Shown piece by piece: positions 4,939 to 63,267 of a DNA stretch of 64,000 bases. The notes under the pieces are model-generated. The model was given only the letters and a program-made list of their open reading frames with translations. It did not search any database and was not told where the DNA came from. The DNA is from Patescibacteria group bacterium. GTDB lineage: Bacteria; Patescibacteriota; Minisyncoccia; JAHIHE01; JAGLIN01. The stretch is from the NCBI GenBank assembly GCA_041670805.1, contig JBAXYM010000002.1, positions 1,309 through 65,308 of the forward strand, in the 5' to 3' direction. The first letter of the stretch is position 1; the number at the start of each line of letters is the position of its first letter. Made by a program: the position numbers and the translations under genes.

Positions 4939-5053
4939 ATATTATTTCATTAAATAAAAATCTAAAATGTTTTGGTCTCTAAGTGACGGATGCCTCTGAT
5001 ATACAAAACTTTTTCTCCTGAGAAAAACCGGCATTTTGTCATCCTCATAAGAA

Positions 5054-5251
5054 CCCTGACCCGTTTGCACTTTGAAATCGCTTATTTCAGCCAAATCAAA
5101 AGATAAAATCAATCTTTATTTGTCATTCCAGAATTTCGGTACTCCGAAATATCCGGAATCCCGTAGCTATGCAAAACAAGCATTGTATTTCATTTTTACC
5201 GGCTTGGTAACGGGATCCCGGATATTTGCTGCGCAAATTCCGGGATGACAA
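5054..5251. mobile_element. Family-B MITE-like element (A-less copy, right end truncated).
   Basis: Left TIR CCTGACCCGTTTGCACTTTGAA, then two internal hairpins: TCCGGAATTTCGGTACTCCGAAATATCCGGA and TCCCGGATATTTGCTGCGCAAATTCCGGGA. Confidence 0.7.
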
Positions 5252-5290
5252 GTTAGTGGATTTGATAAAATATTCTCATCTTAATAATCT

Positions 5291-7388: not shown

Positions 7389-8948
7389 CTATTTCTCTAT
7401 CAAACTTCCCAAGACCATCGCCTTGGGCTTCGGAACGTTCAACACGTCCAGGAGCGTTGGAGCGACATTTCCCAAGACTCCGTTTTTATTAAGCCTGCAA
7501 TTTTTCTTCGTCAGACCCTTTTTCACAATGATAAAAGGCACCGGATTTTTGCTGTGCATTGTGGAAATATTTCCCGTCTCGGGATCCAGCATCTCGTCCG
7601 CATTGCCGTGATCGGCGGTAATAATCGCCGCGCCGCCGCTTGCCAAAACTTCGCTCACTACTTTTTCCAAACACTTGTCCAGAAATTCCACCGCGCAGAT
7701 GGTGGCTTTCAAGTTCCCCGTGTGCCCCACCATATCGGCATTGGCATAATTGACCAATATAAAATCATATATGCTGTGTTCAATATTGGAGACGATAACA
7801 TCCGTAATGTCTCCCGCGGACATTTCCGGTTTTTGGTCGTAAGTAAATACGTTTTTGGAGATAATTCTCTCGCGATTCTCCGAAGCGATCGGCTCGCTGT
7901 GCCCGCCATTGATGAAATAAGTTACGTGCGGATATTTTTCCGCTTCGGCGATATAGAGCTGTTTGAATTTTTGCAATACTTTAGGCAAAGTATCCTCCAC
8001 CGCCTGCGAGGCGTAAGCTATCTGCACCGGCAAATCCTGCCCGAAATCAGTCAACGTACACATAAAAACATTGTGCAGAATATGCTTGCGATTCTCGTAG
8101 TCTCGCATCTCCGGCGCGATCAGCATCTTGGTCATCTGACGCGCGCGATCCCCGCGTAAATTAAAAAATATCACCGCATCGTTGTCCTTGATCGTAGCGA
8201 CCGGTCTTCCTTCTTTGTCTACGATAGTGGTCGGAATTATAAACTCGTCAGTGAGTCCGTGGTTGTATGCGTCCTTTATCACCTGCTCGGCGGAATTTCC
8301 TCTGGCGCCTTCGCCCAAAACCATGGCGTCATAAGCGCGCTGCAGTCTGTCCCAATGTTTGACTCGATCCATCGCATAATATCTCCCGCCGATGCTCGCA
8401 ACTTTTCCAACTCCGATTTCTTTGATTTTGTCATTAAGTGCCCGCAAAAACACCAAAGAACTCTTCTCAAAAGCATCGCGACCGTCGGTGAAAAGATGAA
8501 GATAAATTTCCTTGACCCCGCTGTCTTTCGCCATCCGCATCAGAGCAAAGAGATGTTCGGGATCGCTGTGGGGACTGTCCGAATCCGACAAAAGCCCCAT
8601 CATATGCAAATCGGTCTTTTGCGTGAGTGCATGATTGATAGTCCGGCGAATACGCGGATTTTCGAAAAATTTTCCCGACTGGATATCCTCGTTTATGATT
8701 TGCGAATCTTGTTTGATAATTCTGCCCGCTCCGATATTGACATGCCCGGCCTCGCTCCCACTCCGTTCGTTCTCGCTCAATCCGACCGCCAACCCGGTGG
8801 CGTTGAGCTGTGTGTAAGGATATTTGGCGACCAGACTGTCGAAAAAGGGCTTCTTGGCAAGCTCAATTGCATTGCCTTCCGATTTGGGAGCCACCCCCCA
8901 GCCGTCCAGGATAATCAGCATATTTGTAGGTTTTTTCAATTCGGTCAT
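7389..8948 (-). CDS. gpmI: 2,3-bisphosphoglycerate-independent phosphoglycerate mutase (iPGM), copy 1.
   Basis: 519 aa with LIILDGWG at the N-terminus, the catalytic-Ser motif SGSEAGHVNIGAGR, and a C-terminal metal-binding domain (ADHGN). Confidence 0.9.
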   Translation of the reverse strand: MTELKKPTNMLIILDGWGVAPKSEGNAIELAKKPFFDSLVAKYPYTQLNATGLAVGLSENERSGSEAGHVNIGAGRIIKQDSQIINEDIQSGKFFENPRIRRTINHALTQKTDLHMMGLLSDSDSPHSDPEHLFALMRMAKDSGVKEIYLHLFTDGRDAFEKSSLVFLRALNDKIKEIGVGKVASIGGRYYAMDRVKHWDRLQRAYDAMVLGEGARGNSAEQVIKDAYNHGLTDEFIIPTTIVDKEGRPVATIKDNDAVIFFNLRGDRARQMTKMLIAPEMRDYENRKHILHNVFMCTLTDFGQDLPVQIAYASQAVEDTLPKVLQKFKQLYIAEAEKYPHVTYFINGGHSEPIASENRERIISKNVFTYDQKPEMSAGDITDVIVSNIEHSIYDFILVNYANADMVGHTGNLKATICAVEFLDKCLEKVVSEVLASGGAAIITADHGNADEMLDPETGNISTMHSKNPVPFIIVKKGLTKKNCRLNKNGVLGNVAPTLLDVLNVPKPKAMVLGSLIEK

Positions 8949-9159: not shown

Positions 9160-9183
9160 GTAAATTCAGAATACATTATTTTT

Positions 9184-9321
9184 TGTCATCTCGAAGGAGT
9201 ACTCGACTGAGAGATCTGGGAAATGCACGAAGCTGTGCCGATGTTATTTTCACAGTAAGATTATATTTGCATAGTATTGTTCCCGGATTTCTCAATCGGA
9301 GTACCTCATTTCGAAATGACA
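9184..9321. mobile_element. Family-C MITE (about 140 bp, imperfect ~40-bp TIRs).
   Basis: TGTCATCTCGAAGGAGTACTCGACTGAGAGATCTGGGAA ... TTCCCGGATTTCTCAATCGGAGTACCTCATTTCGAAATGACA. Confidence 0.8.
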
Positions 9322-9351
9322 GATATTGATTGTTTCTTTTAACAGGAGTGC

Positions 9352-14787: not shown

Positions 14788-15031
14788 CCTTTATTCTAAA
14801 TTTTATTATACTCCATTTTTTTCAAAAAACCTAGAGGGAGTCTGCCTGACCCACCCACGCTTTGAGTCGCTTTTTTTAGCCAAATCAAAAGGTAAGATTA
14901 ATCTTTATCTGTCATTTATCTGTCATTCCGAAATTTCGGTACCCCGAAATATCCGGAATCCCGCAACTATACAAGGCAAGTATTGTGTTTCATTTTTATG
15001 AAAGCATTTTGCATTATGGATTCTAGATTTC

Positions 15032-15110
15032 GGATCACACCAGAAATGGCGTGAACCATGCAGGACAAAACGTTCTTGCGCAATATACCGCACCATTTCT
15101 GGTGTGGTCC
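15032..15110. repeat. Family-A element, copy 5 (nested in the family-B composite).
   Basis: Full arms. Confidence 0.9.
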
Positions 15111-15150
15111 GGATGCAAAAAGGCATTTTGGATTCTGGATTTCGGATTTC

Positions 15151-15230
15151 GGATCACACCAGAGATAGTGTGAACCACGCGGGATAAAACCGTTCTTGCG
15201 TAGCATTTCACACCATTTCTGGTGTGGTCC
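15151..15230. repeat. Family-A element, copy 6 (tandem with copy 5 inside the same family-B element).
   Basis: Full arms. Confidence 0.9.
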
Positions 15231-15417
15231 GAATACAAAGCCGGGACAGTTTTTTAGAAAGCAATAGAAAGGCGTCGGGAAGTGCAGGTGGATCAGGGAA
15301 TTCTGCCGATTGCCAATATTTTTATCTAGTCGAGACACAACAAAAAAACGACCATTACGAAAGATCACGCCTACTCCCCACAACAATCTTTTTTCCAACT
15401 TCACGCTTCGCCATCGG

Positions 15418-23323: not shown

Positions 23324-23534
23324 GAAAAGTGATAATTAAAAAATAATAAAAAAATCGTCCGAAAGGTCGATTTATTGCTATGCGAACAAAAAAACCAACC
23401 TGTCTTGAAATAACGTCATACCGAGACAGAAACCTTACAACAACAGATAAGCTGATTTTTCATATGAAATATAACAATCATAAGCTTGAAAAAATAATAG
23501 CACTCTTGGCTCTATTGTCAACAATTAAGACGGA

Positions 23535-23666
23535 CTGACCCACCTGCACTTTAAATTACTTATTTTTTTGCTTTCTAAAGGCTGTCATCCCGGAATTTGC
23601 GCAGCAAATATCCGGGATCCCGTTGCTAAGCCGGTAGAAATAAAATACAATACTTGCCTTGCTCCG
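23535..23666. repeat. Family-B fragment (inverted orientation) joined to A copy 11.
   Basis: CTGACCCACCTGCACTTT...GCTTTCTAAAGGCTGTCATCCCGGAATTTGCGCAGCAAATATCCGGGATCCCG. Confidence 0.65.
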
Positions 23667-23683
23667 TTATTATCCTGAATTAT

Positions 23684-23762
23684 GGATCACACCAAAAATG
23701 GTGTGAACGATGCAGGACAAAACGTTTTTTGCGTAGCATTCACACCATTTCTGGTGTGATCC
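23684..23762. repeat. Family-A element, copy 11 (adjacent to a family-B fragment).
   Basis: Full arms. Confidence 0.9.
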
Positions 23763-23962
23763 ACAAATGCAGTCTGAACATTGCCGGTGTTTTCTAAGAC
23801 AGTAAGAACAGTCCTTTTGATTCCGTAAGAACTGTCCTTTCCCCCTGTATTATTCCGGTAAGCAATCCGACTTTTACTCAGACACAAAGCTTTTTCTCCT
23901 GAAATAAAACACGCTTTTTGTCATCCTCGTAAGGATCCCTTAAGCCACTTAATAACCCGGCC

Positions 23963-29500: not shown

Positions 29501-29578
29501 GACTCTGTCAAGCTGGATCTTGAACCCCCCGTATCAAGCTGCCTAAACACCATTCCCGATATAAACCTCCATTTTTTT

Positions 29579-29810
29579 GCGGGAGCAGGTTTAAACCTGC
29601 TCCCTATGATTTTATTTCAAGACCGGCGATGTTTGTTTCTAACTGCCCATGCTGCTTTGTTACGATTAAATCAATAATAAAACATTCCGAAGCTTAAAAC
29701 CCTATGGAGCGGGTAAATACCCGCTCCCGCAAATACGGACACAAAAAAACAGCGGACCCGAAAATCCGCTATTTTTATCCTATACGCGGGAGCAGGTTTG
29801 AACCTGCTCC
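29579..29810. repeat. Cluster of three short family-G perfect-palindrome hairpins (GCGGGAGCAGGTTTAAACCTGCTCCC and variants).
   Basis: 29579-29604 GCGGGAGCAGGTTTAAACCTGCTCCC; 29706-29727 GGAGCGGGTAAATACCCGCTCC; 29786-29810 GCGGGAGCAGGTTTGAACCTGCTCC. Spacings of about 127 and 80 nt. Confidence 0.8.
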
Positions 29811-29897
29811 TTAATAAACACCTTCAAACTTTCACTTGAAGGCTTTTCCAAAACCGCAAAGGTTTGTGGGCTTGAAAAAAGTTAAGAAAAGAGTATT

Positions 29898-30420: not shown

Positions 30421-30570
30421 TTTTCAAAGAACCCTCTTCATAATCCGGAGAGGACAGCAAAGGCGATTTTATGTTTCTGACAGATAAGTAGGAACTGTAA
30501 TATAATTTATGTCCTGTCCGATCAGATTCTCTCTCCTTTGCAATTCTCGCCGGTTTATATCATAAGAACG

Positions 30571-30679
30571 CGGAGTAGCATGGCTTTAGCCTGCGCTGCT
30601 ATCCAATGCGGACAGAGCAAACGTATGCGATGCATCTCTTGGCTTGGGACAACCGCGCAGGCTAAAGTCATGCTACTCC
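30571..30679. repeat. Family-D GC-rich palindromic element, copy 1 (in the atp leader).
   Basis: GGAGTAGCATGGCTTTAGCCTGCGC...(variable ~45 nt)...GCGCAGGCTAAAGTCATGCTACTCC, with an inner stem TCCAATGCG/...TTGGGACA. Confidence 0.85.
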
Positions 30680-30776
30680 ATTGCCATAACAATAAAGAAT
30701 GCGGCACTATTTTTCATTTATGACTCGTCAGCATAGCATGGTATTCGTTATCTGTCAAGTATTTTTCTCGCAACCC

Positions 30777-35680: not shown

Positions 35681-35756
35681 AATTAGGATATTTGTCTTTC
35701 TGTGGGGTTCCTCTTCCTCATAATAGGGGAATCCGATCAGGGAAATAAACCGCTAT

Positions 35757-35887
35757 TGTCATCTCGAAGGAGTACTCGACTGAGAGATCTGGGAATTGCA
35801 CGCAAACTGGAAAGGTTCAATATGAAGACTTAAACTTTTCGCCATTCCGTACATTCCCCAGATTTCTCAATCGGAGTACCTCATTTC
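35757..35887. mobile_element. Family-C MITE inside the atpG-atpD spacer.
   Basis: Same TIRs as 9184-9321 (TGTCATCTCGAAGGAGTACTCGACTGAGAGATCTGGGAA ... CCAGATTTCTCAATCGGAGTACCTCATTTCGAAATGACA). Confidence 0.8.
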
Positions 35888-36187
35888 GAAATGACAAATA
35901 GAAATTTGATTTCAATAAAGCACGTTAAAAATTTAGAGATTGAGTTTTGGAATAAAAAAGGAGGTGATAAAAATCACAGGCGAGCACATAAAAGAAACAA
36001 GGGAAGATTTAAAATTCAGGAGATTCTATTATAAAGACCTAGCTCTCCACAACGGAAAAACTGTTTTGGAAAAGCTAGAATATTTAATCAGATATTTTTT
36101 AAGTTTTTTCTAAAAAATCTTCCCCAACTTTTTTTCCAAAACCCAATTTCTAAATTAAAATTTTACACATACATTAAACACTTATAG

Positions 36188-40826: not shown

Positions 40827-40891
40827 ATACTGCAAAATACAACATATAAAAAATAAAATACGACAAATTTTTTGATAAACCAAAAGAAAAA

Positions 40892-41146
40892 CGGAGTAGC
40901 AGGTGGAGTAGCATGGCTTCAGCCTGCGCCGCTGTCCAATGCAAAAAAGAACAAACGCATATACGTTCGTTCCATCAGCTTGGAACAACCGCGCAGGCTA
41001 AAGCCATGCTACTCCGAGAATTATTCCGTTTTAACATAAACAAAAGACGCGATAAATCGCGTCTCTACAAAGATACGGAAGGTTATTCCCGCATTGGACA
41101 GCAGCGCAGGCTGAAGCCTGCTACTCCGTTTGTCATGCTACTCCAC
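40892..41146. repeat. Family-D element, copy 2 (one full unit plus a partial second unit).
   Basis: GGAGTAGCAGGTGGAGTAGCATGGCTTCAGCCTGCGCC...CGCGCAGGCTAAAGCCATGCTACTCC, then ...GCATTGGACAGCAGCGCAGGCTGAAGCCTGCTACTCC. Confidence 0.85.
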
Positions 41147-43728: not shown

Positions 43729-43860
43729 CGGAGTAGCAGGCTTTAGCCTGCACGATTGTCCAATGCGGAAAACAAACGTATGCGAAAGTTTTTGCGGCTT
43801 GGGACAGCGGCGCAGGCTAAAGCCTGCTACTCCAACCTGCCACTCCGCCATGCCACCTCG
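43729..43860. repeat. Family-D element, copy 3.
   Basis: GGAGTAGCAGGCTTTAGCCTGCACG...GGCGCAGGCTAAAGCCTGCTACTCC. Confidence 0.85.
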
Positions 43861-48118: not shown

Positions 48119-48286
48119 GCGGAGCACGCAACCCGCGCGAAGTAGCATGGCGGAGTGGCAGGTGGAGTAGCGGGTGGAGTAGCATGGCTTTAGCCTGCGC
48201 GGTTGTCCCAAGTCGCAAAAACTTTCATATACATTCGTTCTCTCCGTATTGGACAGCGGCGCAGGCTAAAGCCGTGCTACTCCGCG
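48119..48286. repeat. Family-D element, copy 4 (left arm reiterated).
   Basis: AGTAGCATGGCGGAGTGGCAGGTGGAGTAGCGGGTGGAGTAGCATGGCTTTAGCCTGCGCGGTTGTCCCAAG...GGACAGCGGCGCAGGCTAAAGCCGTGCTACTCC. Confidence 0.85.
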
Positions 48287-49086
48287 GATGGTTTATTCAA
48301 TAAAACTTTATAAAAAATAAACAGCGGAATGCCGCAAAGCAGCACCCATTGCGTCAAGGTCAAACCGTAAAAACGCGCATCGCAAAAAGTCAAGTCGTCG
48401 CATCGCAAAAAGTCGGCGCCAAAACGAAAAATCGCATATGACGCGATAAAAGCCAAAAAAATATGTCCGTCGCGTTTCCGTTTTGATTTCAATTCGTATA
48501 TCACGCCCGATAAAAATATCAGAAACAATATTTCGTACGAAGCAACCGGATGTCGCAGCGTGCCGTCTGCAAATTCCATTCCCCACGGCAGCGTCGTGAT
48601 TTTGCCGATATGATCACCAATCAAAAAACAACCGAGGCGCACGAAAATGAGCGCGACGACAAAACCGGGGGTCAAAATATCAAACACTTTTTTAAAATCC
48701 CGCTTTTTGTTTTTCAAATAAAGCAGGCTCAAAACTCCGGTCAGCGCCACACCGCCCGCGAGCGAAAAACCGCCATGCACGCCGGTCAAAACGGCGACGC
48801 TTTTTTCCGGACTTGAAAGAAAATAAAAAATACGCCCGCCCACAATCATTCCCGCCAATGAAATAATCATCACGTCCCAGACTGTTTCATCCGCAAGGCG
48901 GGCCTTGCGCGCTTCCTTCAAAGAAATCGCAAGTGCCGCAACAAAACCGAGGGCGACAAAAAGCCCCCATACTTGCAAGGTGAGCGCGCCCAGGTTTATT
49001 TCAGTAAAAGAAAAATACGAAAGCATTTTTATAAAAACAACGGATAACGCGGAGTAGCATGGCTTTAGCCTGCGCGGTTGTCCCAA
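48277..49086 (-). CDS. lgt: Prolipoprotein diacylglyceryl transferase.
   Basis: RLGCFLIGDHIGKITTLPWGMEF matches the Lgt signature (RxGNFxNGELxG...LPWG). The first ~20 codons of the ORF overlap a family-D repeat; the true start is probably MLSYFSF at about 49026. Confidence 0.7.
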   Translation of the reverse strand: MGQPRRLKPCYSALSVVFIKMLSYFSFTEINLGALTLQVWGLFVALGFVAALAISLKEARKARLADETVWDVMIISLAGMIVGGRIFYFLSSPEKSVAVLTGVHGGFSLAGGVALTGVLSLLYLKNKKRDFKKVFDILTPGFVVALIFVRLGCFLIGDHIGKITTLPWGMEFADGTLRHPVASYEILFLIFLSGVIYELKSKRKRDGHIFLAFIASYAIFRFGADFLRCDDLTFCDARFYGLTLTQWVLLCGIPLFIFYKVLLNKPSAE

Positions 49087-49170
49087 GCAAAGAAAACGAT
49101 TGAATATGTTTGTTCTTCCCGCATTGGACAGCGGCGCAGGCTGAAGCCTGCTACTCCGCCATGCTACTCC
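49050..49170. repeat. Family-D element, copy 5 (overlaps the ORF-track N-terminus of lgt).
   Basis: GGAGTAGCATGGCTTTAGCCTGCGCGGTTGTCCCAAGC...GCATTGGACAGCGGCGCAGGCTGAAGCCTGCTACTCC. Confidence 0.85.
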
Positions 49171-50405
49171 GTCCGTAAAACTTTTTTCTTAAATTTCGCA
49201 CCTCTCAATTTTCGATGATACCCTATCGCAAAGCGGTGTGACTCGTCGCGGACTTTCTTTATCAACTCTACGTCGGGAAAAATAAAACTTTTGGGACCGG
49301 AGAAAAAAAGTTTTTCACCCTTGCGGTCGGGTCCCTTGGCGATACCCACGATGGGAATTTCCAGACCCAGTTTTTTCAAGATAGTCTTGGCGACATTGGT
49401 CTGCGTGAGGCCGCCGTCCATCACGATAACATCCGGCGCCCGCCAATCGTGATGATTGCCGAATCTCCTTTCCAAAACCTCATACATCATCGCTGGATCA
49501 TTGGCACCCTCGACGGTTTTGATTTTAAATTTGCGATACTCGTCTTTGTCCGGCCGTCCGCGGCGAAAAACCACCATCGAACCCACAGCATCCTCGCCGC
49601 CGATGTTGGAAATGTCATAACCTTCAATCCTTTCGAACGTGCCGGCGTTGTCTTCCAAAAGCAGATCCTCTTTACGCAGAAACGCCGTGTCGCGAATATG
49701 CCGGAGCGCAAACAGTTGGTCGCGGATTTCCGCCGCTTTCTCGAATTCATTTTTGCGCGCCGCACTTTGCATCTCTTTTTCCAGCTTCTTGATGATCCCA
49801 GATTTTTTGCCTTCCAAAAAAGATCTGATATAAGAGATTATTTTTGCATAGTCCTCCTGCGAAATGTCGCCCGTTTTTCCCGAATTGTAGCCCTTGATAT
49901 AGTATTGGCGATAAAGGCCGGATGTCGCGCTCGACTCGCCGCGGCGGCAGAAAATCTTGACCAGAAAATCGATTACTTTTCCGGCATCATACTTGCTGGT
50001 ATACGGACCGAAAATGTGTTTGGCTTTTTTCTTTTTTTCGTCAGTCGCACGCACGATGAGCACGCGCGGATATTTTTCATCGGTGATGATGATATTCACG
50101 AAATATTTGTCGTCCTTGAGCTTGATGTTGTAATAAGGTTTATGAAGGTTGATGAGATTGGCTTCCAAAATCAGCGCCTCCATCGCGCTGTCGGTAGTGC
50201 GAAAATCTATGCCCTTGATGCTCTCAACCAGTTTTTCCGTCTTGGCATTCAAAGCGCGATTAAAATACGAGCCCACTCGTTTTTTGAGAGAAGTCGCTTT
50301 GCCGATATAGATAATTTCCTCTTCTCCGTCTTTCATAATATACACCCCGGGAGAATCCGGAAATCCCCTTACCGCCTCTTTTATTTTTACATCATATAGC
50401 GCCAT
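49164..50405 (-). CDS. uvrC: UvrC-like excinuclease (GIY-YIG plus RNase-H-like endonuclease domain), C-terminally short.
   Basis: N-terminal GIY-YIG (GVYIMKDGEEEIIYIGKATSLKKRVGSYF) and the RNase-H-like domain (IEGYDISNIGG...VMDGG). At 413 aa it lacks the C-terminal (HhH)2 region. Confidence 0.6.
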   Translation of the reverse strand: MALYDVKIKEAVRGFPDSPGVYIMKDGEEEIIYIGKATSLKKRVGSYFNRALNAKTEKLVESIKGIDFRTTDSAMEALILEANLINLHKPYYNIKLKDDKYFVNIIITDEKYPRVLIVRATDEKKKKAKHIFGPYTSKYDAGKVIDFLVKIFCRRGESSATSGLYRQYYIKGYNSGKTGDISQEDYAKIISYIRSFLEGKKSGIIKKLEKEMQSAARKNEFEKAAEIRDQLFALRHIRDTAFLRKEDLLLEDNAGTFERIEGYDISNIGGEDAVGSMVVFRRGRPDKDEYRKFKIKTVEGANDPAMMYEVLERRFGNHHDWRAPDVIVMDGGLTQTNVAKTILKKLGLEIPIVGIAKGPDRKGEKLFFSGPKSFIFPDVELIKKVRDESHRFAIGYHRKLRGAKFKKKVLRTE

Positions 50406-51083: not shown

Positions 51084-51371
51084 ATATTTTATAGTTAATG
51101 ATTATGGGTTAATTATAATGTTTTTTGTGGTTTTTGCAAAGGATACATATGTTGTTTGTCACTGCGACTAACATTATGCGGGAGCGGGTATTCACCCGCT
51201 CCTTTTTAGTTCGATTTCAAAGATAAACAAAATCTATTTCCAAAATTGTTATCCGCCTGCGGTAAAATCAATTGTAATAAACGTATAATCTCCCGCGAAT
51301 AGCTTCCTTTTTTGGTTATCGTAAAGGGATTGCCACGTCGGAGTACCTCCTCGCAATGAACAGGTAAGACA

Positions 51372-52776: not shown

Positions 52777-52839
52777 CGGACAAAACTTTATATAAGGTTG
52801 TATTAATTATAGTAACCGGAGCTAGCTCATTCTTTTCGC

Positions 52840-52983
52840 GAGAACAGGTTTAAACCTGTTATCAATAGTTCTGTTTCAAAATAAAATAATATGATTGGGC
52901 AAAAAGATATCCGGCACTTTTTATCCGTTCAACATTTTTCTTCTTGAAATCAAACCCCGGAGAGCAGGTTTAAACCTGCTCCC
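52840..52983. repeat. Pair of family-G hairpins between tig and ppaC, with a related copy at 51181-51203.
   Basis: GAGAACAGGTTTAAACCTGTT and GGAGAGCAGGTTTAAACCTGCTCCC; also GGAGCGGGTATTCACCCGCTCC at 51181. Confidence 0.75.
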
Positions 52984-55372: not shown

Positions 55373-55561
55373 CTGTCGAGTACGACTTTCGCAATACCCG
55401 TTATAAAGAAGCAGTTAATATTTGTCATTTCGAAATGAGGTACTCCGATTGAGAAATCTAGGAACAATACTATGCAAATATAATCTTACTGTAAAAACAA
55501 TACCGACAAAGTCTTCGTGCATTTCTCAGATCTCTCAGTCGAGTACTCCTTCGAGATGACA
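55373..55561. mobile_element. Family-C MITE plus an adjacent TIR fragment, upstream of nusA.
   Basis: CTGTCGAGTACGACTTTCGCAATACC fragment, then a full copy: TGTCATTTCGAAATGAGGTACTCCGATTGAGAAATCTAGGAA ... TCAGATCTCTCAGTCGAGTACTCCTTCGAGATGACA. Confidence 0.75.
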
Positions 55562-55744
55562 AATAGGATTGGTCAAGTTCCGGTATCGGGATTGCCGCGT
55601 CGCCCGGAGTACCGGCTCCTCGCAATTCGAGAGTACTGCCTTTGATTTAAAAAAAACCAATCCGCCGGAAGGTTTTCTCAGAATCAGTCTAAAACTAATA
55701 ACATTATAGCAGATTGATTTTCGGTGTCAAATTGCACCTTGACC

Positions 55745-56170
55745 CACTTGAACTTTGAATCACTTTTTTTGCCGAATTGAAAGGTAAAAAACAATCTTTT
55801 TTGTCATTCCGGAATTTCGGTACTCCGAAATATCCGGAATCCCGTAGCTATGCAAGGCAAGTATTGTATTTCATTTATATGAGAGTATCTTGCATTATGC
55901 ATTATGGACCACACCAGAAATGGTGTGAACCACGCGGGACAAAACGTTCTTGCATAATATTTCACACCATTTCTGGTGTGGTCCAAATGCAAAGCTGGAT
56001 CTCTGATTGATACAGATTTTGATGTCTGTTATAAAACCATATATTTGCGCATAACCCATTTTTATCGGCTTGGTAACGGGATCCCGGATATTTGCTACGC
56101 AAATTCCGGGATAACATCTCTTTAGAAAGCTATAGATAAGCGTCGGGAAGTGCAGGTGAAGTAGAATATG
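55745..56170. mobile_element. Family-B composite element with a nested extended family-A element (the best-preserved full copy).
   Basis: Left TIR CTTGACCCACTTGAACTTTGAA, both internal hairpins present, and a right end CTTTAGAAAGCTATAGATAAGCGTCGGGAAGTGCAGGTGAA. Confidence 0.75.
55906..55984. repeat. Family-A element, copy 15 (nested in a family-B element, with left and right extensions about 55882-56064).
   Basis: Full arms. The insertion is bounded by CATTTATA|...|TCGGCTTGG, whereas the A-less family-B copy at about 5180 reads CATTTTTAC|CGGCTTGG. Confidence 0.9.
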
Positions 56171-56250
56171 AGAATAATTGACAGATAAACGAAAATCATA
56201 TATTTTGTATTATACAAAATAAAAAAAGCTGACAAAAAAGGAGGAATTAC

Positions 56251-60189: not shown

Positions 60190-61758
60190 ATGCAAAAAGT
60201 AATTCTCGTCATATTGGACGGCTGGGGCATAAGCAGGGAGGTGGCGGGAAACGCCATCAGGAACGCCCGAACTCCCAATATGGATATGCTGATGTCGTAT
60301 TTTCCCAATACCGTTTTGCAGGCCTCGGGAATCTCCGTCGGGCTGCCTTGGGGCACGATGGGAAATTCCGAAGTCGGACACCTCACTATCGGCAGCGGAA
60401 AAGTGGTGTATCAGAGCCTGCCACGCGTGACCATTTCCATTCAAGACGGCTCTTTTTTCGAGAAAGAGGCGTTGCTGCAAAGTATAAAACACGCCCAAGA
60501 AAACAATTCCTGCATTCACCTCCTCGGACTGTTGAGCGCGGGCAGCGTCCACAGCCACATCAACCACCTTTACGCGCTCTTAAAGCTCTTGAAGATGAAA
60601 AATTTTCCCGCCGAAAAAGTGCTGATACACGTTTTTACTGACGGCAGAGATGTCGACCTTCACTCGGGAATAGATTACATCGCCGAGCTGGAAAAAAATA
60701 TCAAGACGGAGGGCTTCCCGGGAAGGATCGCCAGTGTGATGGGAAGATATTACGCGATGGATCGCAATGAGAATTGGGACCGAACGGCGAAGGCTTACGC
60801 TTGCATGGCAAAGGGCGAGGGTAAACAGGCGGATACGGCGCGCGCGGCGATACTGGAATCTTACGATCGAGAAAAAAGCGACGAATTCGTCGAACCGGTA
60901 ATCATCAAAGACGCAACGGGAAAAGTCAGCACTGTCGGATACGGAGACTCGGTTATACTTTTCAATATCCGCGAAGACCGCGCCCGGCAAATCACCAAAG
61001 CGTTTGTCCTTGACGATTTCAATCATTTTGCAAGGGGAGAAAAAATAGAGGGACTGAATTTTACCACAATGATAGAATATGAAAAAGATTTGCCCGTAAA
61101 TGTGGTTTTTCCTCCCGAGAAAGTAGAAGCGCCTCTGGGCAAAATGTTAAGCGTAGCGGGAGTAAAACAACTCCGAATTGCGGAAACGGAAAAATATGCC
61201 CACGTCACTTACTTCTTCAACGGCGGCGAAGAGAAGCCTTACCCCGGAGAATTTCGAATGCTCGTCCCTTCTCCCAATGTCGAAAGCTACGACCAGACGC
61301 CTCGAATGAGCGCCGAAGAAGTAACCAATAATGTCATCGGGGCGATAGAAGGAAAAGAATACGGTTTTATTTTGGTAAATTTCGCCAACCCCGATATGGT
61401 CGGGCACACGGGAAATATCAAAGCGGCAATAGAAGCGATAGAATTTGTGGATGGATGCGTCGGAAGTATTTATAAGAAAGCCGCAGAAAATGATACAGTG
61501 CTAATTGTAACCGCCGATCACGGCAACGCGGAGGAAATGATCAACACCCGCACCGGCGAAATACTCACCGAACACACCACCAATCCCGTACCTTTCATTT
61601 TGGCAGACCCCCGCCGTCGATTTGAATATCCGCAAAAGCTCGGGCAGAGCAAAGACATAAACGGAATATTGAGTGACATCGCCCCCACGATTTTGGATAT
61701 TATGGAAATCCCCGAACCGAAAGATATGACGGGAACGAGTTTGTTGAGAAGTATGTAA
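60190..61758 (+). CDS. gpmI: 2,3-bisphosphoglycerate-independent phosphoglycerate mutase (iPGM), copy 2 (divergent paralog).
   Basis: VILVILDGWG, GNSEVGHLTIGSGK catalytic Ser, HVFTDGRD, ADHGN. Confidence 0.85.
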   Translation: MQKVILVILDGWGISREVAGNAIRNARTPNMDMLMSYFPNTVLQASGISVGLPWGTMGNSEVGHLTIGSGKVVYQSLPRVTISIQDGSFFEKEALLQSIKHAQENNSCIHLLGLLSAGSVHSHINHLYALLKLLKMKNFPAEKVLIHVFTDGRDVDLHSGIDYIAELEKNIKTEGFPGRIASVMGRYYAMDRNENWDRTAKAYACMAKGEGKQADTARAAILESYDREKSDEFVEPVIIKDATGKVSTVGYGDSVILFNIREDRARQITKAFVLDDFNHFARGEKIEGLNFTTMIEYEKDLPVNVVFPPEKVEAPLGKMLSVAGVKQLRIAETEKYAHVTYFFNGGEEKPYPGEFRMLVPSPNVESYDQTPRMSAEEVTNNVIGAIEGKEYGFILVNFANPDMVGHTGNIKAAIEAIEFVDGCVGSIYKKAAENDTVLIVTADHGNAEEMINTRTGEILTEHTTNPVPFILADPRRRFEYPQKLGQSKDINGILSDIAPTILDIMEIPEPKDMTGTSLLRSM

Positions 61759-61809: not shown

Positions 61810-62040
61810 TGTCCCGGAATTTGCGCAACAGAAAGCCAGCATTTGCATCCGGACCACACCAGAAATGGTGTGAAATATTACGCAAGAACGTTTTGTCCTG
61901 CGTGGTTCACACCATTTCTGATGTGGTCCATAAATCCATAATGCAAAATACACTCGTAAAAATGAAATACAACACTTGTCTTGCACGGCTACGGGATTCC
62001 GGATATTTCGGAGTACCGAAATTCCGGAATGACAGATAAT
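61810..62040. repeat. Family-B half-elements flanking A copy 17.
   Basis: Left ATGTCCCGGAATTTGCGCAACAGAAAG; right GGGATTCCGGATATTTCGGAGTACCGAAATTCCGGAATGACAGATAAT. Confidence 0.65.
61851..61929. repeat. Family-A element, copy 17 (nested between family-B half-elements).
   Basis: Full arms. Confidence 0.9.
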
Positions 62041-62129
62041 TGATTTTATTTTTTAATTTGGCTAAAAGCAGCGATTCAAAATGCAGATGGGTCAGGGATT
62101 TTTCGACAAAAAAATAACCGCCAGTCCGG

Positions 62130-62819: not shown

Positions 62820-63052
62820 AAAAATAATTGATAATTAATAATTGAAAACCTGTAACTGATCGCCCACCCCGAAAGACACTGCCAAAAAGATTCCGTCCCG
62901 CATCAGAACTCCGGATTCGCCATGCGAAGTTTATCGGTCCATATATGCAAGCGGTAACATAATCCCAACCGTATGTATCCAATCAAAACCCACATATCCG
63001 AAACAAGGTCATATGCAATATATTGTATTACAACAAACACCGACTTTGCATT

Positions 63053-63131
63053 CGGACCACACCAGAAATGGTGTGAAATACTGCGCAAGAACGTCTTATC
63101 CTGCGTGGTTCACACCATTTCTGGTGCGATC
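63053..63131. repeat. Family-A element, copy 18.
   Basis: Full arms with TTTGCATTC|...|CATAATTCAAAATAC flanks. Confidence 0.9.
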
Positions 63132-63267
63132 CCATAATTCAAAATACACCGGATATGTCAGAGATCGTTTATCGGATCAGAACCCATAAATTACGTATAA
63201 TCCAAAATATTCAAAACTTTATCTCAAACATTCAAAATTTCTTTTCTTGTGCGATAGAACCTCGGCA

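Follow-up and report, generated by a model that had tools for sequence, protein, structure and literature searches.

Introduction

Pneumococcal BOX elements are modular, with an internal module (boxB) that varies in number between end modules. The BIMEs of E. coli are mosaic repeats (PMC2817692), and REPINs are REP doublets mobilised by RAYT tyrosine transposases (PMC3337134). Bacterial MITEs such as Nezha and Chunjie are small, non-coding foldback elements with terminal inverted repeats and flanking direct repeats, and their orthologous sites are found empty or filled between close relatives (PMC3184786). Palindromic repeats can themselves be targets, as IS1397, ISKpn1, IS621 and ISPpu9 insert into REP palindromes (PMC1525189; PMC3184786).

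Here we describe two repeat families, A (with its full-length form, A-long) and B, in a 64-kb stretch of DNA from a Patescibacteria group bacterium, which we call the window. Like Nezha and Chunjie, A-long and B are small, non-coding and foldback, with inverted ends, direct repeats and empty and filled sites. Unlike them, two MITE families are nested here, the composite has been amplified and the host is a CPR bacterium; MITEs of the Nezha/Chunjie type also have an insertion sequence with matching ends (e.g. ISNpu3), whereas none was found for A-long or B in the sequence sampled. As with the four insertion sequences in REPs, mobile A lies repeatedly inside a resident intergenic palindromic repeat, B; however, those elements are autonomous and their transposase chooses the REP, whereas here the guest is a MITE, and copying of the composite, not new targeting, accounts for most occurrences. 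B resembles BOX elements and BIMEs in being modular, with 0, 1 or 2 copies of an internal module between conserved, partly inverted ends, but here the internal module, A, is a transposon in its own right, carrying ends and a duplication of its own, and is far commoner outside the composite. The layout of a REPIN (PMC3337134) is shared by the A core and by the hairpin pair H/H' of B; the A core has the two inverted REP-type hairpins with a spacer, in the form of two hairpin arms with 6-bp stems. Unlike REPINs, A-long and B have terminal inverted repeats and duplications of 8-10 bp. Pfam annotation of the genes in the window lists no RAYT (Y1 HUH) gene, and none was seen in the sample.

CPR bacteria (Patescibacteria) have streamlined genomes of about 1 Mb, in which mobile DNA is usually said to be scarce. 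In such a genome, the locus documents transposons that were recently active, became nested and formed a composite, and our literature search on MITEs in CPR or Patescibacteria returned no relevant paper. Nesting of MITEs followed by amplification of the composite is a mechanism familiar from other organisms, and the interest of the case comes mainly from its host.

Materials and methods

A 20-nt A-arm probe was used against metagenome contigs and returned 102 loci (L122-L223; 702 kb, mostly non-redundant), 101 of them from contigs named for one landfill series (Ga0172377, Ga0172378 and Ga0172381). Together with the window, these landfill-metagenome loci make up a sample of 766 kb, over which nhmmer gave 229 matches to A, about 90 to the left arm of B and about 54 to its right arm; E-values of 1e-30 to 1e-45 for A and B copies indicate that these are not chance matches. 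A scan of a genome collection with a 16-nt hairpin pattern yielded mostly chance matches and was useful for L018, L095 and L089 and for H-like hairpins.

Results

The window corresponds, in reverse complement, to part of an ENA metagenome contig of 155 kb. Its genes are housekeeping genes (nusA, trigger factor, clpP, glycolysis, F-type ATPase and type IV pilin), and the Pfam matches of the genes called in four loci tiling it include no transposase family. Repeats within the window occupy 8.7% of the 64 kb and are intergenic throughout except for two iPGM paralogues, that is, two genes for cofactor-independent phosphoglycerate mutase (7389-8948, minus strand; 60190-61758, plus strand). All A and B copies in the window sit between genes, and the density of A is about 0.3 copies per kb. 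The host is a Candidatus Paceibacterota bacterium, as the homologues of its NusA at 85-90% identity are named Candidatus Paceibacterota or Pacebacteria, and for so small a genome it is unusually rich in repeats. Both families were absent from the syntenic loci of four related species (L224-L231; NusA 85-90% identical), so A and B are lineage-specific expansions; the intergenic DNA of these loci is too diverged for mapping exact empty sites.

B is an imperfect foldback of about 270 nt whose left-arm and right-arm profiles cross-match on opposite strands. The original prediction, whose quoted sequences were all found where it had placed them, gave B terminal inverted repeats and two internal hairpins. 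Inverted ends do exist in the family consensus (CCTGACCCACCTGCACTT...AAGTGCAGGTGGGTCAGG), but they are degenerate at 55737-56164, and the right end is missing from the copy at 5051. The hairpins H and H' are likewise present, and they are inverted copies of each other within the one foldback. Since the whole of B folds back with H and H' inverted, the site occupied by A is the centre of symmetry of B.

The copy at 55737-56164 (plus strand) is the only one in the window that has every part of B. It is a composite, B::A, of a foldback MITE and an A-long remnant at its centre, and thus the nesting of A in B predicted at 55745-56170 holds with slightly shifted limits. Its parts, all on the plus strand, are a degenerate left terminal inverted repeat at 55737-55755 (CCTTGACCCACTTGAACTT; family consensus CCTGACCCACCTGCACTT), the hairpin unit H of the left arm at 55802-55845 (TGTCATTCCGGAATTTCGGTACTCCGAAATATCCGGAATCCCG), the A-long remnant, the proximal part of the right arm with H' at 56066-56116, and the right end at 56117-56164 with its own degenerate terminal repeat (AAGTGCAGGTGAAGTAG). 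Folded as single-stranded DNA, the composite reaches -83 kcal/mol (z = -10.7), and an A-free B (L166:1061-1305) reaches -59 kcal/mol (z = -10.1).

The other copies in the window are less complete. The copy at 5051-5259 (plus strand) has an empty centre, in which ATTTTTAC at 5192-5199 is followed by CGGCTTGG, and lacks the right end. At 14842-15296 (plus strand) the two tandem A cores predicted at 14844-15300 were confirmed at the canonical site (15012-15129 and 15131-15247), with the left junction of other filled copies (CATTTTTAT followed by GAAAGC); H' is deleted there, a right junction of type R4. Two B fragments, near 23535 and 61810, had also been said to abut A. The second stands, as 61837-62099 (minus strand) carries a left arm with A at the canonical site, a right junction inside H' (type R3) and no right end. 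The first does not: at 23534-23780 (minus strand) a right arm with an empty canonical site (23534-23641, reading CCGG followed by TAGAAATAAAATAC) is followed by a truncated left arm, which an A core at 23671-23780 abuts at a different position and in the other orientation, so this copy gives no support to a single defined site.

Duplications at the ends of B are 10 bp long in L166:1061-1305, where TGTAAGGATC stands on either side, and about 8-9 bp long in L140, those of other copies being degenerate; overall, the two clearest copies point to 9-10 bp. The flanks of several B copies have the motif GYAAGRAnC in common. B-like elements with the same architecture and a different, A-free centre occur in other CPR MAGs, at L095 and L018 (Paceibacterota STD2_77) and at L089 (labelled Saccharibacteria).

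The H unit is a member of a very widespread hairpin type. Hairpins in the H/H' frame (GTCATTCCGGAATTTC...GAAATATCCGGAATCCC or GGGATCCCGGATATTT...AAATTCCGGGATGAC) are multi-copy repeats in unrelated phyla, at L099, L054, L031, L108 and L067 (Cyclobacteriaceae MAG OZ245848.1) and further at L073 (Alteromonas oceani), L033, L053 and L083. Within the landfill strains, H' was gained or lost as a precise 30-nt unit with ATCCCG repeats at its bounds (L168:4139-4168 versus L195:4807).

Self-comparison and profile searches located 18 A copies in the window, five of which touch B. These copies represent the core of a longer MITE of about 200-245 nt, A-long, which has the A palindrome in its middle. A-long was found by searching for the motif GGGTCATACAC and its complement, and its inverted ends (GGGTCATACGCAATATAT...ATATATTGCGTATGACCC) are paired in 14 copies; a stand-alone copy of 198 nt with both terminal repeats lies at 63006-63203 (minus strand). 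The target-site duplication of A-long is 8 bp: at least six of the eight flanking bases are identical in 8 of the 14 two-ended copies, against 0-2 copies in eight offset controls, and stand-alone examples include ATGCTTGA/ATGCTTGG, ATTTATTC/GTTTATTC and CTTTTTAG/ATTTTTAG. The suggestion that A is or was mobile is thus borne out by the full-length form, which has its own terminal inverted repeats and duplication. About 80% of A copies in the sample are core-only, without recognisable A-long ends, and the ends of these cores are blurred by a variable GGATTTY/GCATTAT microsatellite.

The remnant inside the composite (55881-56057, plus strand; 177 nt) has lost the left terminal module and kept the core palindrome and the right module. 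Its core occupies 55905-55985 (plus strand), with two 25-nt arms (55905-55929 and 55961-55985) that are 100% complementary around a 31-nt loop, and the right terminal inverted repeat reads CCATATATTTGCGCATAACCC at 56037-56057 (plus strand; family consensus ATATATTGCGTATGACCC). The 5' flanks of A cores often carry a variable microsatellite of 7-8-nt units (GCATTAT, GGATTTY); two GCATTAT units are present at 55890-55904 of the window, and three in the 97%-identical strain L135 (4612 region).

Each arm of the A core in the window is also a mini-hairpin, CACACC-N6-GGTGTG, which across the 229 copies of the window and L122-L223 becomes CACNCC-N6-GGNGTG with a 6-bp stem. Within arms, double compensatory changes at stem position 4 (A-T to G-C or T-A) account for 64 cells against 88 single changes, whereas between the arms of the palindrome we counted 1 double against 213 single changes. 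Selection on short hairpins or dyad sites could cause this covariation, as could quasi-palindrome correction, and many of the cells may be traceable to a few founder events.

The core of the stand-alone copy L156:7145 is flipped between its inverted arms, and the number of tandem A copies differs between strains (L123/L134 and L173/L180). One A-long copy differs between the L204 and L149 strains by a deletion of about 75 nt that removes the right module, which shows how truncated forms of A-long originate.

The filled and empty sites of B can be compared within the window, as had been proposed for 5054-5251 and 55745-56170. The empty copy at 5051-5259 reads GTATTTCATTTTTAC followed by CGGCTTGGTAACGGG, and the filled copy at 55737-56164 reads GTATTTCATTTATAT, 177 nt, ATTTTTAT and then CGGCTTGGTAACGGG. 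The insert at 55881-56057 is flanked on the left by ATTTATAT (55873-55880, plus strand) and on the right by ATTTTTAT (56058-56065, plus strand), where the empty copy has a single ATTTTTAC followed by CGGCTTGG. A target-site duplication, which had been suggested as a check of this junction, is therefore present as an 8-bp pair identical at 7 of 8 bases, and the two states differ by exactly one A element plus one copy of ATTTTTAY. These limits were assigned to the duplication because the end signature of A-long is also seen inside other B copies.

The junction recurs across the sample. Past GTATTTCATTTTTAC, the right arm follows at once in 19 B copies (empty) and A in the same orientation in 25 (filled), a ratio biased towards filled since the loci were fetched with an A-arm probe, i.e. 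picked for containing A, and counted over rows that include orthologous duplicates (window/L135, window/L169, L142/L196 and L149/L211). Among the remaining rows, one continues into A in the opposite orientation and three into other sequence. A longer left module is present in seven or eight filled copies and starts at the junction or at most two bases from it with GGGTCATACAC or a close variant. The left terminus of A-long in B thus appears as ATTTTTAC followed by GGGTCATACAC or by GGGTCATAC (L155, L139), and in degenerate form as AGATCATACAC, GAGTCATACAC and GAGTCATACGC (L175, L187 and L199). The right terminus appears as GTATGACCT, ATTTTTAC and CGGCTT in L168, whose orthologue L195 has an identical flank, and as CATAACCC, ATTTTTAT and CGGCTT in the window and L135. 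Both termini and both copies of the duplication never occur together in one B copy, and the picture is pieced together from left-intact and right-intact copies.

Promoter-like sites lie on both sides of the composite. A predicted promoter with a full sigma-70-like consensus (12/12) is located just outside the left end of B and faces nusA (55703-55730, minus strand), and a promoter-like site 13 nt beyond the right end faces a 122-aa ORF (56178-56206, plus strand). More generally, an outward-facing TTGACW box, resembling a -35 element, was found 7-13 nt past 11 of 46 B termini, where about 0.16 were expected (in L125, L136, L142, L202, L213 and others), and the copy at L213:1770-2088, like the B::A copy of the window, sits between two divergent promoter-like sites. 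Because the spacers are unrelated in sequence, the association would reflect either site choice or survivorship.

Co-occurring strains differ in several MITE-like families. A third family of palindromes, C (GGAGTAGCATGGCTTTAGCCTGCGC...GCGCAGGCTAAAGCCATGCTACTCC; 115-126 nt), occurs in the window at 30554-30685, 40887-41030, 41082-41128, 43768-43847, 48158-48289 and 49033-49171, and is present or absent between strains at L187:10033-10147 versus L123:4180 and at L166:6507-6632 versus L138:186. In 15 copies C follows A directly, in 4 it precedes A, and a conserved linker (ACAATTTGCCAAAC) joins the two. Small hairpins of a family termed S (TGTCATCCTCGTAAGGATCCC) lie inside a longer conserved repeat, with 40 copies in the sampled loci and one at 23919-23939 of the window; their stem has three covarying variants (ATCCT/AGGAT, ATTCT/AGAAT and ATCTT/AAGAT). 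B lies in or beside S at L166:1061, L178, L200 and L204:5128, and the left half of S precedes window position 5056. Copies of another repeat family (TTGTCATCTCGAAGGAGTACTCGACTGAGAGATCTGGGAA...) were seen at 9182-9346, 35756-35900 and 55397-55563 of the window, and one of them shares the region upstream of nusA with the B::A element. Short GC-rich hairpins (GCGGGAGCAGGTTTAAACCTGCTCCC) at four places in the window (29567-29620, 29774-29827, 51166-51219 and 52826-52879) could be terminators or another REP-like family.

Discussion

A-long and B are probably two families of non-autonomous DNA transposons, MITEs as Delihas uses the term in a review (PMC3184786). Both have terminal inverted repeats, paired in 14 copies in the case of A-long, and target-site duplications of fixed length (8 bp for A-long, 9-10 bp in the clearest copies of B). 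They are small (200-430 nt), non-coding, multi-copy and mainly intergenic, and orthologous presence and absence is seen for the B::A composite (L204 versus L149) and for family C. The different lengths of the duplications suggest that A-long and B use different enzymes, and a DDE-type transposase would presumably act on them in trans.

The partner that the original prediction proposed to look for, an intact insertion sequence with matching ends, was not found in the 766 kb. No matching pair of ends encloses an ORF-only interval of at least 600 nt in this sample; four pairs at least 600 nt apart (1.1-5.1 kb) all enclose A or B copies and were therefore taken as ends of separate elements. Ten ORFs representing the largest paralogous ORF families carried no transposase domain when scanned, and they include ABC transporters, glycosyltransferases, a MacB/FtsX permease, FemAB, a penicillin-binding protein, a BipA-type GTPase and one ORF without a Pfam match. 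In viral contigs, the A-long end was unmatched and the 17-mer of the B end had three matches, none of them scored by the A or B-arm profiles; the one that we read in detail (L233) has no transposase next to the match.

The candidate families named in the original prediction, IS630 and IS200/IS605, are a poor fit. IS630 duplicates TA, and members of IS200/IS605 have neither inverted ends nor a duplication, carry subterminal hairpins and insert 3' of a short specific motif. A MITE derived from IS630/Tc1-mariner was rejected since the duplications are 8 bp in A-long and 9-10 bp in B instead of TA, and an IS200/IS605 origin for A-long or B was rejected on the inverted ends and the duplications. 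Duplications of 8 bp are made by ISL3, IS6, IS66, IS256 and IS1595. A known RNA family was also considered and rejected, as nothing in Rfam matched at gathering thresholds; a lax E-value gave far-sub-threshold hits alone, comprising four miRNA-precursor models on the A hairpin, RAGATH-4 and a snoRNA model.

As to how A came to lie in so many B copies, we consider it probable that A-long inserted into B once or a few times and that the composite of nested MITEs then spread as a unit. A-long would have entered the AT-rich 8-mer ATTTTTAC at the symmetry centre of B and duplicated it, and the resulting composite, still equipped with the ends of B, would have kept transposing as a unit that carried A along as a passenger. 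During this spread, terminal modules of A-long and parts of the right arm of B would have been lost by deletion between short homologies of the GGAT type. The window copy at 55737-56164 would be one such derivative, with the left module of A-long gone and the right end and both copies of the duplication intact.

The main competitor is that A-long or A enters the same 8-mer at the centre of B again and again in independent events, as the original prediction implied with a strong target preference for B. We regard such repeated targeting as distinctly unlikely. It would account for a junction identical in 25 filled copies and for the resemblance of ATTTTTAC to other A-long duplications (AATTTTAC and (C/A)TTTTTAG), and several IS families are known to insert into palindromic repeats already resident in a genome (PMC1525189), but it sits badly with the orientation of A in B, which is 25:1, and the single opposite case could be a flip of the core between inverted arms of the kind seen in stand-alone L156:7145. 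Independent insertions are also at odds with secondary junctions that recur at unrelated loci. The left junction TTTTTAC followed by GAGTGTATTTTG is found, with small variations, in most filled copies, and the junctions on the right side belong to four types (R1 in 4 rows, R2 in 7, R3 in 8 and R4 in 6), which lie at GGAT-type microhomologies and each recur at several unrelated loci.

Clustering and strain comparison speak against repeated targeting as well. For 31 of 42 B-embedded A copies the nearest neighbour is embedded too, where the base rate is about 22%, and 32 of 43 left arms of filled and empty B copies group with their own class (permutation p ~0.005). The whole unit of left arm, A and right end is present at L204:5123-5461 and missing from the orthologous site of L149, with flanks 96% identical and a degenerate duplication around the L204 copy; strain pairs with A present and absent inside an otherwise shared B were not seen in the sampled loci. 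Finally, about 80% of A copies in the 766 kb lie outside B. The shared deletion junctions, the clustering of arms and the L204/L149 polymorphism together argue that A-long inserted once or a few times and that the composite then spread, so that B copies contain A so often mostly because they inherited it with the composite. Insertion into B was thus the right kind of explanation and the strong preference was an overstatement, while the alternative offered beside it, a composite in which A and B evolve together, is the main reason for the many A-filled copies.

We find it harder still to see the structure as a mosaic repeat built by recombination, with A as a variable-number module whose 0, 1 and 2 states arise by unequal exchange or slippage. 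Tandem A number does vary between strains (L123/L134 and L173/L180), the 30-nt H' hairpin is itself an indel (L195/L168) and A adjoins family C downstream in 15 copies and upstream in 4, all of which would suit a mosaic; yet it would not explain why stand-alone A-long has inverted ends and an 8-bp duplication of its own, why these same ends and duplication are found at the junction in B, or why B-like elements elsewhere are without A. The evidence supports an A-less ancestral state of B. That A-containing B is ancestral and A-less copies such as 5051-5259 are deletions is hardly credible, even though deletions at short homologies are common in these elements and exact excision between the 8-bp repeats would restore an empty site, given the A-less B-like elements at three loci of other CPR genomes, the 19 empty copies with one precise junction, the independent existence of A-long with its own ends and duplications, and the clustering of filled and empty B arms by class.

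A separate matter from insertion number is what the mobilising system recognises. It is conceivable, if unlikely, that the A and B repeats are not plain DDE-type MITEs and are part of a system whose recognition signal is symmetry or hairpins in DNA. The insertion point of A-long is the centre of the foldback of B, that of B is in or beside the small S hairpin or at 7-13 bp from TTGACW boxes that face outward, and the short hairpins of A and S keep pairing through compensatory changes. If so, a mobilising enzyme guided by structure or dyad sites could be at work in Patescibacteria; another possibility is that the host uses these hairpins as promoter-proximal or terminator-like signals. Targeting of palindrome apices as a general rule is weakened by the flank motif of B, GYAAGRAnC, which could explain the choice of site without structure.

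Two further indels between strains were noted, a 146-nt element with inverted ends (TACCGAATTAACTT...AAGTTAATTTGGTA; L192:1356-1501 versus L177:288) and a 66-nt insert (L159:1559-1624 versus L223:9033). The repeats appear to fragment MAGs of the host lineage, and short-read assemblies that break exactly at repeat junctions matter for MAG quality in such lineages. Two other short-read assemblies of the same strain lose their alignment inside the B::A element: position 1 of L002 corresponds to window position 55876, placing the contig end about five bases before the start of the A insert, and position 67 of L003 corresponds to 55994, where the match stops in the A core after 66 non-matching terminal bases.
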